A stretch of 62,562 nucleotides of DNA from a virus: UHGV virus genome UHGV-0106067; one strand, given 5' to 3'. Below are positions 3,212 to 60,446 of this stretch, piece by piece (positions within the stretch are counted from its first letter, which is position 1; each line of letters opens with the position of its first letter). A program made the position numbers and the translations under genes. The notes under the pieces are model-generated. The model saw only the letters and a program-made list of their open reading frames with translations, was not told where the DNA came from and ran no database searches.

Positions 3212-4306
3212 TTAACTGACACCAGAATCATCATAACCGCGACTTGTTATAGCTTGCCTGTATGCGTTCATTTTGCGTTCTGCGTACTGGACAACATCTT
3301 TAATGACAAGCTTATGAACAACTGAAATAAGGTCATTTATATAACAAAAGTCAGGTGACTTATTTTTCACTGGCAACCAAATAACATCGTTCTTAATTTT
3401 TCTATTACTAACACTATCCCCCCATGAATATTTATGTGAAATAGACCTATAAATACATGAAATAATGCCCAAATAAGCAAACTTTGTCCTTCCATCCTCA
3501 TTGTTAACATAGAGTCGCAAATTATGACTGTCGTTTGAAAAAAAGTCTCGCTCCTGATAAGTTACAACGAATGTCTTACCACCAATAAAAATACAGTTCC
3601 CTTTTTCCAAGAGTGAGTCATCATAGGCGATATAAGAACTAACAGAGTTATTATCACGGCTAGCACAAAGATAAGGAACATCCCCACTATTTTCTATGAT
3701 GTCTCTAGACAATATGTTTCCTGTATTGCACACTGAGAATAACTCAGTAACAGGAAAGCCTGAAAATTCAATATTTTTAAAATGTTCCAGGATAAGATAA
3801 TCTTTTTCCGTTAGTTGGTAATCACTCAGCCCAGCAGCTATCAGGTATGCTTCCAGCTCTTCTATATGGGCCGCTTCCAGCTCTTCTATATAATTATCCA
3901 TAAAAAACCAGTCAATTTCATTATTTTTCACTGGTAATGAGATGAAATATTCTCCATCTCTGAGTTTGGAACTCGATAACTGTTGACCATAATTAAAACG
4001 CCCCTTTAAAGCTTTATTAATCATACTGGCAACATACAGTCCGCGCTTTGCATTAAAGTCGGACTTACTTGATTTTAATGTAAGAACATGCACCTTCATT
4101 TCTACGCTGGCACAATAAGGATGATAAAAAGCATCTCCAAAAAAATTAACGCTTATAAAATTTTCATAATGTCTTGCATCATCCATAAACTCGGTATCAA
4201 ACTCTCCGATGATACCGTTTTGATCGCTCTTTGCTGAAACACGTTTGATTTTGCCTGGTTTTAATCTTCCTGAGGAGATAAGCGAGCCTGTGCTCACATA
4301 GAACAA
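3212..4306 (-). CDS. restriction-modification specificity (S) subunit, two target-recognition domains
   Basis: 364 aa; two internal repeats each ending in an LPVKN...D-type segment (FISLPVKNNEIDWFF and VIWLPVKNKSPDFCYINDL) as in HsdS/BcgIB-type subunits; AT-rich; directly downstream of methyltransferase-nuclease gene. Confidence 0.5.
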   Translation of the reverse strand: MFYVSTGSLISSGRLKPGKIKRVSAKSDQNGIIGEFDTEFMDDARHYENFISVNFFGDAFYHPYCASVEMKVHVLTLKSSKSDFNAKRGLYVASMINKALKGRFNYGQQLSSSKLRDGEYFISLPVKNNEIDWFFMDNYIEELEAAHIEELEAYLIAAGLSDYQLTEKDYLILEHFKNIEFSGFPVTELFSVCNTGNILSRDIIENSGDVPYLCASRDNNSVSSYIAYDDSLLEKGNCIFIGGKTFVVTYQERDFFSNDSHNLRLYVNNEDGRTKFAYLGIISCIYRSISHKYSWGDSVSNRKIKNDVIWLPVKNKSPDFCYINDLISVVHKLVIKDVVQYAERKMNAYRQAITSRGYDDSGVS

Positions 4307-4365: not shown

Positions 4366-6327
4366 TTACTTTCCCGCAAAATTGTTTTCACCTTGTTTTT
4401 TCAGTAATTGCGAGACCTCCCATGCAAGGTAATCACCTACCGTCTTTTTGAAATCCTCCAGCGTTGGCCTAGCATCTACTGGCCTGGTCTGATTCCAGTC
4501 CTCACCACTATCAGGATCGATTGTTCCCTCAAAATATTCATCCTCCGTAAAGATATTAAGGCAACCTTTCCCGAAGTGAACCAGATCCACAACCTCCTGA
4601 TAACGCTCTTTTGCACGATCGGCATCAACAAGATTGTTTCTTGCCTTTTTGCGATTAGAGCGAGCGTAGCCGTCATTGGAAAAGTCGATAAACTTAACAG
4701 CCTGTTTCGCGTTATGCGGAATTTTTACCTGAAAAACGTAAATGTACGTCTGAACGCTTGATTTACCAATAAACAGATCCGCAGGCATTTTGATGCTTGC
4801 CAGCAAGGTATTTTCCTTGAGTATTTTTTTGTTGTACTCCGTAGCCTTTCCTGTGCCAGCTGAACTCTGGATAATCACTGCAGCATAGCCTTTATCCATC
4901 ATCGACAGCGCCTTCTGCACGAAAATCATGCCGTTACCTTTAGCTGAATACGGAGGATTGAGAATAAATGCGTCCGCAGGGAATTTTTCTCCTGTTTTCC
5001 CAAATCCATACTTGCCGTCAAAATCGGCCAGCGAGTCTTTATTGAGGATATTCGAGCTACCATCCCCCATCAAAATCATATTCAGGATGGCCAGCATATA
5101 AATACTGGATAACACCTCAAGGCCAAGAAGCTGTTCAGCCTTGATTTGCGCTTCCTTAAGTTGTAGTTCGTTCGGTGAGTGAATATTTTCTCTGGCGTCA
5201 ATGAGCATTTCATTCATTGCAGCCACAAGCAATCCCGCAGAACCTGTAGCAAAATCCCACACATAGGAATCTTTGTTTACTCTGGCGAGTCGTGCCAGCA
5301 ATGTGGCAACATAAGGTGGTGTCAGAACGACGTCATTGAGCTTGTCCTGCGTAAATCCAAGCCAGCGATACATCTCATTAAACAGTTTGCCCGTAAAATC
5401 GGTGGTCAGTCCAATTTTGTAATACTCCCCAAGATCATCAACAACTTTAACAAACACGCGCTTTAACTGGCTTTCACCGTTGACTGGTTTGTTAATGTTT
5501 TCAGTCCACAGCGTATTTTGCAACGAGCGCAAAATCATTTCTCTTTTTGTTTCAGGAACAGCTTTCAGCCTTAAAAAGTTCCTTATTTTCCTGAAAATAA
5601 TATCACCATCACGCAAGTCCTCCTCCGTTGAAGAGGTCAGTTCTTTTTTATCCAGCGGTGCTAACTTTCCCGGAATCCCCAACGTTGCAATAACGGTAGC
5701 CACAACAAGGTAAACACGATCGCTTTCACCAAGCCCCTTTTCATTCTGGTAAATATCGTTATTCAGACGGGAAAGTCGCGTGTCTATCTCTTCCTCTTTG
5801 CTGGCCTTGATTTTTTCCAGTTCTTCGGGAGGAAGATTAAGCAGCTTTATCTTGTTGAGAAATCCATCAACATTTTTGTCAGCAAGGAACGATAAGTCGG
5901 TGAATTCACCAACCTTCTGTCCGGCTCCTAAATTATTCTTTGATACGTACCACACGCCGATTTCATGATGCAGTTCGCCTGTACCATCATCGCGCCAGCC
6001 GGTCATACCAATAGCAATAATATCAGGGTAATTGGTGAACTGAAGAAGTGCGTTGGCATAATGGACTGCGCCATTCACCGCGTATCCATTAATATTTTTA
6101 AAATTCCATTCTTTTCTGGCATCTTTGTTCTCAATAATACCGTTGCTGCCAAGTCTGATAAGCCTGTCCTTGTAGCCTTTATACTCGATGAGAACGGGAT
6201 ACTGCTTGCCGTATTTGTCCTTAACAAGGAGTTTTACGTCGGGACGATTACCGCCTGCGCCGCCATTTTTCGAAAAATAAGCGTCCAGTGCGTTATCGAT
6301 CTCTCCGTTAAGTGATGCATTCTGCAA
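4366..6327 (-). CDS. fused PD-ExK endonuclease / gamma-class N6-adenine methyltransferase (Type IIB BcgI-A-like R-M subunit)
   Basis: 653 aa; N-terminal PD...(x17)...EYK motif (RPDVKLLVKDKYGKQYPVLIEYK); motif I VWDFATGSAGLL; motif IV FILNPPYSAKG; apparent TTG start. Confidence 0.6.
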   Translation of the reverse strand: MQNASLNGEIDNALDAYFSKNGGAGGNRPDVKLLVKDKYGKQYPVLIEYKGYKDRLIRLGSNGIIENKDARKEWNFKNINGYAVNGAVHYANALLQFTNYPDIIAIGMTGWRDDGTGELHHEIGVWYVSKNNLGAGQKVGEFTDLSFLADKNVDGFLNKIKLLNLPPEELEKIKASKEEEIDTRLSRLNNDIYQNEKGLGESDRVYLVVATVIATLGIPGKLAPLDKKELTSSTEEDLRDGDIIFRKIRNFLRLKAVPETKREMILRSLQNTLWTENINKPVNGESQLKRVFVKVVDDLGEYYKIGLTTDFTGKLFNEMYRWLGFTQDKLNDVVLTPPYVATLLARLARVNKDSYVWDFATGSAGLLVAAMNEMLIDARENIHSPNELQLKEAQIKAEQLLGLEVLSSIYMLAILNMILMGDGSSNILNKDSLADFDGKYGFGKTGEKFPADAFILNPPYSAKGNGMIFVQKALSMMDKGYAAVIIQSSAGTGKATEYNKKILKENTLLASIKMPADLFIGKSSVQTYIYVFQVKIPHNAKQAVKFIDFSNDGYARSNRKKARNNLVDADRAKERYQEVVDLVHFGKGCLNIFTEDEYFEGTIDPDSGEDWNQTRPVDARPTLEDFKKTVGDYLAWEVSQLLKKQGENNFAGK

Positions 6328-6416
6328 CTTGTAATCAAGCCTGTAAGATTTAAGCCATGAGTTCGCCAGTTCGGTAATTTCCGGCTCAACAGATTTTACA
6401 GACTTTCTTGATTTAC

Positions 6417-6451
6417 TGCTGGTCGCTGGTCGCTGGTCGCTGGTCGCTGGT
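6417..6451. repeat. heptanucleotide tandem repeat (YGCTGGT x5) upstream of R-M gene
   Basis: tgctggt cgctggt cgctggt cgctggt cgctggt, about 90 bp upstream of the R-M start. Confidence 0.9.
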
Positions 6452-6635
6452 CTGGCAGCATAAAATCATCCTTTTATGAAAATCAACGATTTTTGAGCAC
6501 TCGCACACAAAAAATTACCGCATTGGTTGCAACGACAACCTGCATTTTGCGGAGCATATGACAAATAAAGTACGGGTGCGTTGAGGATGCCAGACACATC
6601 AGAGGTGGCGGGAGATTACTCCCCTGCCTGGTCTC

Positions 6636-6791
6636 TTACTTCTCAGATTCGTAGTCTACGAAGACAGCGACCTCCGTCTGGCCGGTTCGGATTCGTACCT
6701 CGCAGAAGTCTTTCCTCGTTACCAGTGCTATCACTACGACGGTAATACAGATGACGATCAGGGCGATTAACATCGCCTTTTGCTGCTTCAT
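6636..6791 (-). CDS. hok: Hok/Gef-family type I toxin (HokC/HokD-like)
   Basis: 51-aa ORF MKQQKAMLIALIVICITVVVIALVTRKDLCEVRIRTGQTEVAVFVDYESEK; SD aaggaga upstream; absent from ORF track (<60 aa). Confidence 0.75.
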   Translation of the reverse strand: MKQQKAMLIALIVICITVVVIALVTRKDFCEVRIRTGQTEVAVFVDYESEK

Positions 6792-6966
6792 AGCCTACTT
6801 CTCCTTGCCTTTCGGCACGTAAGAGGCTAACCTAAGTTTGTAAGTCATAGATTTGGCCTCAGATTAATGTTAAGCGTCCTGCAAGACGCGTAATGTTAAC
6901 TGGGGCTTTTCTCTGTCTGCCTTACGGCTGCATGCCCGAGGCAGACAGCCTCAAGCACCCGCAGCT

Positions 6967-6994
6967 ATTCTACAGTAAAAACTCGCGCTTTCAA
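6967..6994 (-). promoter_or_regulatory. candidate late promoter (pR-prime-like) immediately downstream of Q
   Basis: minus-strand TTGAAA-16 nt-TAGAAT; -35 overlaps Q stop codon; inverted repeat ctgtctgcc/ggcagacag just downstream could be part of a qut-like element. Confidence 0.45.
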
Positions 6995-7416
6995 TTTCCC
7001 GCACGTCCGGCAAACTGACTGGCCTGTGATCCTGATGGTTCACGCTCAACGTACCTGTCCATTTCCAGCTTTACTCCCTGCATGATCAACATCCCCTCAA
7101 TAACACCTTCTGCTTTTTGCAGTACCCGCCCGGCCCAGCAATCAGAGCGCCCATGCTTACGGCCCAGTGACATAAGCGTCATCCCGAACACATAATAATC
7201 ATACAGAAAATCATGCAAATCGCTGTTGTTGACGTTCAGTTGCGCCATGCAATTGCTGATAATCAGCGCATCGTCATCGGTACACTGAGGCCGTGATTTA
7301 ACCTTTGACGGGATCAGCCCCTTAAATCCGGCGGCAATGGGCGACCAGCTCACATCCTCATGATTATTGGCCACCCATGCGCCCCAGCGTTCAAGCACCT
7401 GCTGAATATCACGCAT
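6991..7416 (-). CDS. Q: late antiterminator Q (933W/phage-21 type)
   Basis: [45 protein letters not shown] matches recalled Q of Stx phages; position after NinH; start placed at internal Met of 6991..7521 ORF. Confidence 0.65.
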
Positions 7417-57941: not shown

Positions 57942-59647
57942 CAGTGAGCCATCCAGTGTGTGGTTCTGCGTTTATCCGTTTTCTGTTTTACCCTCACCGG
58001 CATTCTGGCGCGCATCTCCTGGGCAATCATGTAGCTCATAAGCTGATCATCAAAACAGCCTTCCTGTGCATTCATGGAGCCTTTCGCGTCATAAACGTAG
58101 GTGTTCATTTCTGATAATGTGCCCGACCAGCGGATCCCCGACAGGCCGTTATTCAGCAGCGTTTTCATTCCCTCTGTCAGGACCGGTTTACTCTGGCGGG
58201 TTGTCAGCCAGCCAAGACGGGGCGTATCGTCGTCATATGCCTGGTCAAGGTGCTGTTCGTTGTAGATATAACGCGTCGGATAGAGTTCCCTGAGTTTCAG
58301 GATAACGGCATGTCCGTGATTGTTACGCTCCGGCCCCACAAACGCATTGTTGTACATACGGCAGACCTGCGCAATGAGATGAGCGAAAAGCTCCGCATCG
58401 AGATGACCAAACCAGTGAGCCACCTGCTCACCATTACTGCATCTGATGATATCCAGCGATGAGCGGTCTCCGTGCTCCAGCCCCTCAGCGGTATCCGCTC
58501 CGCATACATACTCTTCATCCGGATCCGGCAGCTCCCAGACCAGCAGATAATTCATCAGCGTCCGGTGCTGTTCGGCTTTATTCCCGTCACGCAGAGACTG
58601 CGCCTTGGTCTTCGTTCCTGTAACCGGTTCAATGTCATAAACAATCAGCGGTGGCGAACAGAATGACTCTGCCTGCAGCGTGCTTTCCGCACTGAACACC
58701 CGTCGTCCTGACGTCAGAAACGCCTCCTGTGGCGTTGAGGGAAATTCCTGCTTCATTTCCTCACGCTGTTCAGTTTCCTTGCAGATGTACCAGTGTTTCT
58801 GCTCATCGGTAAGCGTGATGTTCATTGCTTTTTCAACCGCAGAAAAATACGCTGTTTTTTCCCGTGACAGCTTAAGTCCGCTTTCCGGCACTCTGGCGCT
58901 GTATTTGAGATCCTGCCACCAGGCGTAAAAATGGAATTTATAATCCTGTGGCGTCAGCGCCAGCCCTGATGCAGTGATTTCCTGTGCCCGGTTACTCATC
59001 TCGTAAAAATCGCCACCCACACCTTCAGCAGTGGATTCATCAAAAATAATGCACTCATCAGAGACGGCATTAAGTGTACCGGTTCGCAGTTCTTTCGCCT
59101 TAGCCGGATATTTTGCGCAAATTTTGCCGTGCTCTGAGATATGCAGGCGCTGCACCGTACCTGAACGGAATGAGGTTGCCACCTGGATACTCGAGCCGTG
59201 ACCAAACAGGATATAGCCACCGCTGGCTCCGCTACGACGTTCAACGATGGTGAATGAGGCTCTCAGCCAGTCAGGAAGATGATCAAACGGTACAGCAATT
59301 TTGGTGCGGAAAATTTCACTGGCAGCCTGTTTATCCTGAGCGACAATCCCGCATTTGAGATGCGGTATGAATAATGCCTGGTCGAGAAGATAAATATCAA
59401 TGGCTGTGGAAAATCCCAGCTGGCGCGCTTTCAGGATAATGTTTTTATTATGCATGTTACGAAACAACTGACGTTGCGCCGGTCGCATTCTGAAGGTGAC
59501 CAGTTCACCTTTTTCGTTCTGTATTTTGTAGAGATGATTGAGGCGCCACCAGGGATTGCTCAGTTTTGTCATAATGAACAGACGTTGTTCGGTCTCAGTC
59601 ATTTCTGCAGATTCATCACATCGCGGTTTATTCTTCCGGAATGTCAT
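57941..59647 (-). CDS. terL: terminase large subunit
   Basis: 568 aa; ATPase then nuclease segments; position after small subunit. Confidence 0.75.
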   Translation of the reverse strand: MTFRKNKPRCDESAEMTETEQRLFIMTKLSNPWWRLNHLYKIQNEKGELVTFRMRPAQRQLFRNMHNKNIILKARQLGFSTAIDIYLLDQALFIPHLKCGIVAQDKQAASEIFRTKIAVPFDHLPDWLRASFTIVERRSGASGGYILFGHGSSIQVATSFRSGTVQRLHISEHGKICAKYPAKAKELRTGTLNAVSDECIIFDESTAEGVGGDFYEMSNRAQEITASGLALTPQDYKFHFYAWWQDLKYSARVPESGLKLSREKTAYFSAVEKAMNITLTDEQKHWYICKETEQREEMKQEFPSTPQEAFLTSGRRVFSAESTLQAESFCSPPLIVYDIEPVTGTKTKAQSLRDGNKAEQHRTLMNYLLVWELPDPDEEYVCGADTAEGLEHGDRSSLDIIRCSNGEQVAHWFGHLDAELFAHLIAQVCRMYNNAFVGPERNNHGHAVILKLRELYPTRYIYNEQHLDQAYDDDTPRLGWLTTRQSKPVLTEGMKTLLNNGLSGIRWSGTLSEMNTYVYDAKGSMNAQEGCFDDQLMSYMIAQEMRARMPVRVKQKTDKRRTTHWMAH

Positions 59648-60446
59648 CCAGTCTCCCCGAATTACTCATTTCATGCAGCGATGACACGATGTCACTGACA
59701 GGCGTAACAACGCCCCGACGCTGGCTGGTCAGAATATCGGTTTCCGCTCTGAGTTTATCTCTGGCGGCGTTGATTCTTTCCCGGTCAGCACGAAGTTTTG
59801 GTGCTGTTTCCGCCAGAACGTCCAGCGTCAGCAATGAGCGTTCAATTGACTCGATACGGGCAATATTCCGGTCAAGAGCCTGTTCGGCTTTAAGTATTTT
59901 GTCGTACAGGGCAACACGGGTTTCCACGTCAGCCGCCTCTTTCAGGTCGGCGAACATTTTTTTCAGTGTTCCTGTTACTGAAAGTGCGCGGGCACGGGTG
60001 AACACCAGTTCATCGAACAGCACCATATCGGACGCATCATCCATGAGGTTATCTGCCTCAAGATACTTCGCATATCCACGGTGTCTCACGGCGTGGGTGT
60101 TACGGTCGCTAAACCGGGCAACGGGGTGAGGATTGCCCGATCTGCTGTTGCGTTTCGTTTCTGCCGAATTTGCGCAGTTTTTTTCAGAATTTTTTGCGCA
60201 TTTTTCATCGTCGGAACCCGCGTCATTGCTGGGTTCTTCATCTGAGATGTCATGATCGATTTCATGATCGATTTCATGATCGGTTTTATGATCGATTTCA
60301 TGATCGATTTTGCCCATTTTTATACGGGTTCTGGCGGTGTTGTAATTAATCTTTTTCTTACGGCACCACTCCAGTAATGTTATTCCCGTTTCGGCATGTT
60401 CGCGTCGGAATGCCTGCTCCAGTTTTTTCCAGTCCAGCTTTGCCAT
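59628..60446 (-). CDS. terminase small subunit-like protein containing (IDHE)n repeat
   Basis: 272-aa ORF upstream of and overlapping terL. Confidence 0.5.
   Translation of the reverse strand: MAKLDWKKLEQAFRREHAETGITLLEWCRKKKINYNTARTRIKMGKIDHEIDHKTDHEIDHEIDHDISDEEPSNDAGSDDEKCAKNSEKNCANSAETKRNSRSGNPHPVARFSDRNTHAVRHRGYAKYLEADNLMDDASDMVLFDELVFTRARALSVTGTLKKMFADLKEAADVETRVALYDKILKAEQALDRNIARIESIERSLLTLDVLAETAPKLRADRERINAARDKLRAETDILTSQRRGVVTPVSDIVSSLHEMSNSGRLDDIPEE
60251..60310. repeat. 12-bp tandem repeat x5 (atgatcgatttc) inside terS coding region
   Basis: read directly; encodes IDHEIDHKTDHEIDHEIDHD. Confidence 0.9.

Follow-up and report, generated by a model that had tools for sequence, protein, structure and literature searches.

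A heptanucleotide repeat near the start of a prophage-borne, BcgI-like restriction-modification gene as a probable translational phase-variation switch

The viral genome UHGV-0106067 was analysed over its whole length of 62,562 nucleotides (hereafter the window) with respect to a short tandem repeat lying at the 5' end of a predicted restriction-modification (R-M) gene. The array occupies positions 6418..6452; its 7-nt unit reads GCTGGTC when taken from the plus strand and is present in 5.0 perfect copies (Tandem Repeats Finder (TRF) score 70, 100% matches). A preliminary description, made from the sequence alone, had reported five copies of YGCTGGT at 6417..6451; the repeat was confirmed, that register being the identical array displaced by one base. 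In 62.5 kb of random DNA, the expected number of such runs of five perfect 7-mers is ~9e-13, therefore the repeat was taken as real. The R-M gene is encoded on the minus strand, on which the region reads AAAAGGATGATTTT ATG CTG CCA (GACCAGC)5 AGT AAA TCA..., and the number of units is denoted n below. The following features make up the locus (dN/dS is the ratio of nonsynonymous to synonymous divergence, and PGAP is the Prokaryotic Genome Annotation Pipeline).

3212..4306, minus strand: gene for the specificity (S) subunit, 364 aa (Pfam Methylase_S in two stretches; PADLOC Specificity_II)
4366..6417, minus strand: body of the fused restriction endonuclease/N6-adenine methyltransferase gene, 683 codons and a stop (Pfam, PADLOC, motifs, dN/dS)
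6325..6327, minus strand: annotated start codon TTG, giving a 653-aa product in the PhiR12_3 and PGAP annotation; rejected as the start
6396..6461, minus strand: 21-codon OFF open reading frame (ORF) read from ATG-2 at n=5, MLPDQRPATSDQRPAVNQESL, ending at the stop TAA 6398..6396
6413..6415, minus strand: TAA stop directly 3' of the array in the third frame, which ends the ATG-1 reading at n=5 (...DQQ and stop)
6418..6452, minus (coding) strand: heptanucleotide array (GACCAGC)x5 (TRF and minus-strand reading); 9-120 units in relatives
6459..6461, minus strand: ATG-2, the probable start codon of the R-M gene, 9 nt before the array (Shine-Dalgarno sequence with a 7-nt spacer; relatives and database proteins)
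6467..6469, minus strand: alternative ATG-1, 8 nt upstream of ATG-2 in another frame, overlapping the Shine-Dalgarno sequence
6469..6473, minus strand: Shine-Dalgarno sequence AAGGA, 7 nt before ATG-2, read from the sequence

The preliminary description had placed the array outside the ORF, about 90 bp upstream of the R-M start. This distance arose because both the ORF listing and the public annotation start the gene at TTG 6327; the array does lie ~90 nt from that annotated codon, but not upstream of what is probably the true start. On the minus strand the frame of the gene is open through the array, and an ATG preceded by a Shine-Dalgarno sequence is situated 9 nt before it, so the repeat belongs inside the ORF. 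Read in frame, it encodes DQRPATS heptads, three 7-nt units giving one 7-residue heptad. Since 7 cannot be divided by 3, the ATG and the 683-codon body share a frame only at n = 0 mod 3. When the sequence was rebuilt with n = 0-12, products of 686-714 aa were obtained from ATG 6461 at n = 0, 3, 6, 9 and 12, and only 6-35 codons at every n that is not a multiple of 3. Both non-productive frames meet a TAA within 20 nt past the array (at 1 and 20 nt). The window allele, with n=5, is OFF for ATG-2 and also for ATG-1.

Four independent lines of sequence evidence, namely the distant homologs, the lack of conservation of TTG 6327, the repeat-free relative L010 and the E. coli database proteins, point to ATG 6461 as the real start of the gene. 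ATG-2 was kept in every aligned allele, and the AGGA of the Shine-Dalgarno sequence was invariant in the same alignment. The repeat-free relative L010, in which the gene directly follows the phage Q gene, reads GGGAGGAAATTCAT ATG CTG CCA AAT CAG CGA CCA ACA AAT AAA TCA AGA AAG; the identical ATG CTG CCA start is used in frame, GGGAGG-N8 stands ahead of the ATG, and the array site consists of two imperfect units, AATCAGC GACCAAC. Escherichia coli database proteins start with MLPDQRPATS(DQRPATS)n, followed by the conserved segment, and correspond to 3, 9 and ~30 units; the heptads are present in P0003, P0009, P0010 and P0008. Homologs with lengths of 679-689 aa and ~72% identity occur in Neisseria, in Providencia and in uncultured sources; they conserve the 30-codon stretch that separates the array from the TTG (...KSVKSVEPEITELANSWLKSYRLDYKLQ in the window versus MTQASKKSNKSIEPNIADLANGWLKSYKLDYRLEQ in Neisseria), as do Salmonella homologs. 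The proportion of nonsynonymous differences (pN) in this segment was 0.12-0.14, against a proportion of synonymous differences (pS) of 0.35-0.60.

TTG 6327 was ruled out as a start by all-frame translation and by the N-termini of the homologs, and is regarded as an annotation artefact. The codon is CTG or CTT in all other alleles examined and is not conserved in homologs, and there is no in-frame ATG, GTG or TTG between the array and this position.

ATG-1 is in frame with the gene only if n = 1 mod 3 and is probably weak or unused because it overlaps the Shine-Dalgarno sequence. It is replaced by ATA in L015 and L166 and is missing in L010. Annotators nevertheless use it in the database proteins P0005 and P0008, and in strain 04-00955 a single PGAP coding sequence of 739 aa crosses the array, there in the ATG-1 frame. 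That ATG-1 is a genuine second start, giving a three-level switch, was retained as no more than a possibility, in view of the overlap and of the loss of the codon in several alleles. Two Neisseria homologs, P0104 and P0042, differ by an in-frame N-terminal repeat at the equivalent spot (MTQASKKSNKSNKSNKSIEP versus MTQASKKSNKSIEP), therefore the N-terminus of this enzyme family seems to tolerate repeat expansion in further genera as well, there with no frame consequences.

The protein encoded by the body matched Pfam N6_Mtase (E 5.5e-21) and, end to end, the PADLOC model REase_MTase_IIG PDLC03616 (E 3.4e-232). Motifs of a nuclease and of a methylase were invariant in 17 homologs, namely P59-D60...E78-Y-K80 (PD...EYK), DFATGSAG at 388-395 and NPPY at 487-490; the Pfam match to VRR_NUC was sub-threshold (19.8 bits vs a cut-off of 23.8). 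The protein is 28% identical over 97% of its length (E 2e-40) to the product of the Staphylococcus aureus phage phi-42 locus (Sau42I), and a further homolog is annotated bcgIA. The R-M gene is also paired with an S gene in the Neisseria, Salmonella and L010 contexts. The PGAP label "HsdM family", which would imply a Type I R-M system, was rejected: TIGR00497 hsdM scored 36 bits against a cut-off of 242.75, and the nuclease motif is fused to the methylase. No adjacent hsdR was found at the locus or in the PhiR12_3 gene order. Because of the PADLOC, motif and phi-42 matches, the failed HsdM threshold and the missing HsdR partner, the pair was filed as a BcgI-like Type IIB system with predicted activity, comprising a fused nuclease-methylase and a separate specificity subunit with two target-recognition domains (TRDs). 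Three hallmarks of this type were found here: a PD-(D/E)XK nuclease and a gamma-class N6-adenine methyltransferase (NPPY) in one polypeptide, an adjoining two-TRD specificity subunit gene, and homology to a characterised enzyme (the Sau42I locus). A fourth, cleavage to either side of a bipartite recognition site, would be predicted. Sequence and profile searches of the PDB with the R-M protein revealed no detectable similarity to solved structures. Since the AlphaFold model was poor (mean predicted local distance difference test, pLDDT, 55), the Foldseek matches, such as that to BsaXI (E 4e-5, low template-modelling score, TM), are only loosely consistent with this filing and the structural support is weak.

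The body is under strong purifying selection and the gene alive, as judged from dN/dS values of 0.04-0.06 overall: 0.055 at dS 1.66 between the window and the Salmonella allele, and 0.044 between the window allele and the repeat-free relative. The size of the S subunit varies. It is 364 aa in the window, split or partial in strain E2855 (L002 1..625), 175 aa in 04-00955 (L004 68..595), and represented by two half-size ORFs in L010 (3518..4694), which suggests TRD turnover besides the ON/OFF switch.

The copy number of the array was compared across related phages and genomes, as the preliminary description had advised, and ranged from 5 (window, the shortest array counted) to 120 units; a 3-unit allele is on record among the database proteins. 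Perfect arrays were found in PhiR12_3, a nearly identical phage (83 units), and in E. coli strains E2855 (31), G8 (99) and 04-00955 (16). The locus is present in 29 of 5,426 complete E. coli genomes. PhiR12_3 and 28 of these 29 genomes (H67 was left out) constituted a set of 29 long-read records, in which copy numbers were obtained by direct counting and by inference from match spans (validated in 3 of 3 cases). The arrays in this set were mostly perfect and had a median size of 76 units (range 16-120); by phase, the records divided into 8, 8 and 13, with no departure from uniformity (chi-square p = 0.42). Sister strains with 0/789 mismatches in the flanks differed in the repeat itself: G8 has 99 units and G1/2 ~93, and OkiPb01714 has 23 and OkiPb01692 30. 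The in-frame strains include G8, DETEC-S792 (54 units), JNEC-KY173 (66), OkiPb01692 and strain 48 (120); PhiR12_3, G6/7 and OkiPb01714 are out of frame. The IMG/VR alleles contained 9, 9, 9, 16, 19, 34 and ~102 units. E. coli alleles of 85-98% protein identity, with 3' junctions AGT, GACC/GT and GACC/AGT, all retain the identical unit.

At least 12 contigs break inside the array, as short-read contigs commonly do; a Salmonella contig opens with ACCAGC followed by AAATTAAGAAAG, i.e. it breaks at the array tail. The largest protein cluster, with 841 members labelled "partial", begins immediately 3' of the array. In L161, from the "complete" genome of E. coli 2015C-3121 (NZ_CP027340.1), ~60 C residues interrupt the array. 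This poly-C run is almost certainly an assembly or consensus artefact, therefore even long-read assemblies are unreliable at this locus. Spurious plus-strand ORFs cross the array in L001 (4259..4876), L003 (2709..3422), L006-L008 and L160-L162. The opposite-strand ORFs annotated as "YXWGXW repeat-containing protein" or "Drug resistance transporter EmrB/QacA subfamily" were rejected as genes; their size tracks n, there is none at n = 5, and they exist only because the repeat has no stops.

The array is likely to be a translational phase-variation switch and the gene a prophage-carried "contingency locus". The GACCAGC tract lies 9 nt into the ORF, and n mod 3 would set the reading frame of the BcgI-like R-M gene. 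Slipped-strand mispairing at replication would add or remove units at high frequency, and a population of lysogens would be a mixture of cells with and without the enzyme. Since one polypeptide carries both the nuclease and the methylase, the two activities would appear and vanish together, which should soften the usual danger of methylation being lost before restriction. ON alleles would carry from 3 to 40 DQRPATS heptads at the N-terminus, and these may tune the activity, as in NeuO. Three properties of simple sequence repeat (SSR) contingency loci were observed at this site, and a fourth, frequent reversible ON/OFF switching within a clonal population, would be predicted: the repeat is perfect, its unit is not a multiple of three and it lies inside the ORF past the start; a single repeat phase gives the full-length product and the others end early; and the repeat number varies among close isolates with constant flanks. 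The slipped-strand switch that the preliminary description had suspected for the R-M locus is therefore strongly supported by the 5 to 120 copies and by the differing sisters with identical flanks.

The R-M cassette is part of a lambdoid prophage, in whose late operon it follows Q and hok and precedes the lysis genes. The gene order in PhiR12_3 is cI, cro, replication genes, NinG, NinH, Q, hok, array, RM, S, a 657-aa ORF, holin, R, Rz and terminase. The features upstream of the R-M gene in the window are as follows.

6509..6552, minus strand: terminator-like hairpin (CCGCA...GGUUGU-CGUU-GCAACC...UGCGG) with a U-run, ~45 nt upstream of ATG-2 (fold)
6636..6791, minus strand: hok-family toxin gene, immediately upstream of the R-M gene (NCBIfam Hok)
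6786..6960, minus strand: sok/hok RNA element (Rfam sok RF01794, 118 bits)
6967..6994, minus strand: sigma-70-like promoter TTGAAA-16-TAGAAT at the 3' end of Q (consensus match)
6991..7416, minus strand: antiterminator Q gene (PhiR12_3 and PGAP annotation transferred by coordinates)

The promoter scan of the region revealed one sigma-70-like site, with one expected by chance; TTGAAA-16-TAGAAT is a candidate for pR' or for the hok promoter. Between hok and the R-M start, no match to the sigma-70 consensus turned up. Since the scan gave none near the start, transcription probably comes from upstream, either as read-through from hok or as Q-dependent late transcription. The hairpin at 6509..6552 is probably the hok mRNA terminator; in the diverged allele L036 a different hairpin with a T-run occupies the equivalent position. 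The hok gene is annotated as frameshifted in E. coli 04-00955, 2012EL-2448, 2015C-3121, 2018-166 and strain 48, and in L010 Q and the R-M gene are not separated by a hok gene.

Other explanations of the array were weighed against a translational switch. The preliminary description had proposed a spacing mechanism, in which the array is untranslated and copy number alters transcription or the geometry of the leader. Repeat-dependent promoter spacing is known in other bacteria, and the annotation pipelines choose TTG 6327, a codon 90 nt past the array, as the start; that TTG, however, is not conserved, and the 30 codons between it and the array are conserved in distant homologs with pN well below pS. 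The array is preceded by a conserved Shine-Dalgarno sequence and ATG, used in frame in L010, so that copy number would act on the frame of a coding sequence entered 9 nt earlier. Moreover, no promoter hexamers flank the array, and tracts of 110-840 bp are incompatible with the role of a 17-bp spacer between -35 and -10 motifs. This mechanism is considered very improbable. Still less credence is given to an array of regulator-binding sites for the R-M locus, also put forward in the preliminary description. Direct repeats can be protein-binding iterons, but nothing specific speaking for such a function was found at the R-M locus: the unit is not palindromic, the tract lies inside an ORF and no regulator gene is associated with it. 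Perfect identical units in 5 to 120 copies are what homogenisation by slippage predicts, rather than a conserved number of sites.

The array could also be a neutral hypermutable minisatellite, slipping without any adaptive role, with the enzyme made from another start or the gene being mostly silent cargo. The uniform phases with no excess of ON alleles, the predominance of out-of-frame alleles among those sequenced, and the many unrelated genomes in which the GACCAGC heptamer forms arrays (among the matches listed) are compatible with this. Uniform phases are, however, also expected from a fast unbiased switch sampled without selection. There is no in-frame ATG, GTG or TTG from which the enzyme could be made between the array and the non-conserved TTG, and each of the two other frames runs into a stop immediately past the array. 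The body has dN/dS of ~0.05 across alleles whose synonymous divergence is saturating, and the array is retained in E. coli and apparently in Salmonella. Since dN/dS is low and the unit is kept across diverged alleles, a decaying pseudogene or a purely neutral minisatellite fits poorly, and this explanation is regarded as improbable.

Several points weigh against a translational phase-variation switch. Everything put forward here about switching in a single culture, about translation from ATG 6461, and about methylation and restriction is deduced from sequence. The ON phase was represented by 8 of the 29 sequenced isolates and is not enriched, which gives no direct sign of selection for expression. 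A promoter was not found near the start, and the terminator-like hairpin stands 45 nt upstream of ATG-2. At 50-120 units the array would insert 120-280 low-complexity residues beside the nuclease domain, and tolerance of such long heptad tails is assumed on the model of NeuO. Irregularities of 1-3 nt in several long arrays could be sequencing errors or frame-breaking lesions; these, like the poly-C run, are most simply explained as long-read errors. Finally, the copy number of 5 in the window may reflect a truly short allele or an assembly collapse. A collapse from a much longer source array, which concerns the allele and not the mechanism, is possible though rather doubtful. All 29 long-read assemblies have at least 16 units (median 76), including the nearly identical PhiR12_3 with 83, and the draft and metagenome contigs that span the array hold 5-34 units, many others breaking inside it. 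Short reads, however, assemble through short arrays only, so ascertainment alone predicts short values, and 3- and 9-unit alleles exist on long contigs. NeuO arrays of 2-93 copies also occur in nature (PMC3046976).

The closest parallel to a translational switch of this kind is neuO of the E. coli K1 prophage CUS-3, reportedly described by Deszo et al. in 2005 as a "mobile contingency locus". CUS-3 is P22-like; the gene studied here is placed between Q/hok and the lysis genes of a lambdoid prophage. In neuO a heptanucleotide variable number tandem repeat (VNTR) begins 2 nt after the ATG, is present in 2-93 copies and gives the ON state at multiples of 3; the repeats encode RLKTQDS heptads, whose number tunes the activity of NeuO (PMC3046976). 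Likewise, the VNTR here is found in a prophage gene of E. coli soon after the ATG (9 nt instead of 2 nt), its copy number has a comparable range (5-120 vs 2-93), full translation is predicted at multiples of three only, and three units are translated in frame into a 7-residue heptad that forms a variable N-terminal domain. The unit and heptad, GACCAGC/DQRPATS, have no sequence relationship to AAGACTC/RLKTQDS, and NeuO is a polysialic acid O-acetyltransferase acting on the capsule whereas the R-M enzyme would act on DNA. No homology of the repeat to AAGACTC, or of the enzyme to the hexapeptide-repeat acetyltransferase, was found. An extra out-of-frame ATG is present here, and switching and length-dependent activity, demonstrated for NeuO, would still be predictions for the R-M protein. 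Since unit, heptad and enzyme class differ, the R-M locus is an analogue and not a relative of neuO.

Phase-variable R-M methyltransferases ("phasevarions") are known among Type III mod genes, Type I hsdM/hsdS genes with SSRs and the Type IIG gene Cj0031 (PMC5909438, PMC7383803, PMC4889913). They share with the present locus an SSR within the coding region of an N6-adenine methyltransferase R-M protein and switching by frameshift; as in Cj0031 of Campylobacter jejuni, the protein predicted to be switched is a fused nuclease-methylase, in which both activities toggle together. Phasevarions, however, have mono- to pentanucleotide tracts of modest length and are chromosomal in host-adapted pathogens (Haemophilus, Neisseria, Helicobacter, Campylobacter, Streptococcus suis), whereas here the unit is of 7 nt, the arrays reach 840 bp and the locus is on a temperate phage of E. 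coli and Salmonella. The R-M locus is not listed in the survey of SSRs in Type I systems.

Sau42I is said to have been described on S. aureus phage phi42 by Dempsey et al. in 2005. BcgI, BsaXI and Sau42I are Type IIB R-M systems (PMC3592470, PMC11997821). The locus resembles all three in having two genes, one for a polypeptide with an N-terminal PD...EXK nuclease motif and an NPPY gamma-type methylase and the other for a separate two-TRD specificity subunit, and resembles Sau42I also in being prophage-encoded; a repeat switch has been reported for none of them. No prior description of the locus was found in searches for the unit, the heptad peptide and typing schemes of the multiple-locus VNTR analysis (MLVA) type, or in R-M phase-variation surveys and recent reviews, within the literature outside subscription-only papers and REBASE.

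A bolder proposal, which at present seems unlikely and is put forward tentatively, is that of a phage-borne "phasevarion" with digital and analogue control, toggling a Type IIB enzyme on lambdoid prophages of E. coli and Salmonella. The length of the heptad tail (3-40) and the out-of-frame ATG-1 would then grade the activity, giving more than two states, and lysogens and, given the late-operon position, bursts of progeny would be epigenetically heterogeneous.

An array of the same unit was found on the equivalent strand in Pectobacterium carotovorum DSM 30168 (NZ_FQWI01000003.1), where L049 6519..6643 contains 17 perfect GACCAGC units. They start 2 nt past a Shine-Dalgarno-preceded ATG of an EcoRI-family adenine methyltransferase gene (PF13651, E 8e-131), which at n = 17 is read in frame; the next gene has a GmrSD_N domain (GmrSD-type). 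PGAP starts the methyltransferase at a non-canonical codon past the array. The flanks are unrelated to the E. coli locus, and the tract may represent convergence or a transfer of the tract. It is not a family trait of EcoRI-type methylases, as ~120 close homologs of the Pectobacterium enzyme lack the array. The reading frame shared by the E. coli and Pectobacterium tracts was disregarded, since in-frame 7-nt repeats always give an identical cyclic heptad; in this comparison the shared strand and unit alone are informative. The presence of the array at a methyltransferase gene gives a hint, in line with the bolder proposal, that such tracts recur as switches of DNA-modification genes and are not a one-off.

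In practical terms, annotation pipelines systematically mis-start the R-M gene (at TTG or later codons), short-read assemblies break and possibly collapse at the locus, and the array, being hypervariable, can serve directly as a marker for typing. Accounts of E. coli usually feature switching by DNA inversion and by Dam-dependent mechanisms, not contingency loci based on repeat tracts, and neuO is to our knowledge its sole well-known case of such a repeat switch. The R-M locus would be the second prophage-carried repeat contingency locus in E. coli, after neuO, and, as far as searched, the first such switch found to control an R-M enzyme in E. coli or Salmonella. If it operates as proposed, enterohaemorrhagic (EHEC), enteropathogenic (EPEC) and commensal lysogens would hedge between the cost of defence and protection, genome methylation could differ from cell to cell, and the progeny phage released by lysogens could carry the protective methyl mark or lack it.

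When genomes were scanned for the bare array, the matches listed were mostly GC-rich arrays with no relation to the locus; the scan therefore says little on its distribution within Enterobacterales. Among the same matches, GACCAGC and the variants GGCCAGC and GACCAGG formed arrays at many separate loci in a few metagenome-assembled genomes (MAGs) of Planctomycetota and Gemmatimonadota; loci L041, L045, L053, L054, L058, L060, L075, L093, L096, L099 and others belong to several contigs of the Planctomycetota MAG JALHRW01. Heptanucleotide arrays appear to abound in these MAGs and have no relation to the E. coli locus.

Two further tandem repeats were noted in the window. At 48092..48129 there are 3.5 copies of an 11-bp repeat, ATGACCATTGA (96% matches), overlapping no ORF of at least 60 aa; this unit, too, is not a multiple of three. 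At 60246..60310 a 12-bp repeat, GATTTCATGATC, is present in 5.4 copies (90% matches) inside a 272-aa minus-strand ORF (59628..60446) and encodes IDHE/IDHK tetrapeptide repeats; since it is in frame, changes in its copy number would alter the length of the product and not its frame.
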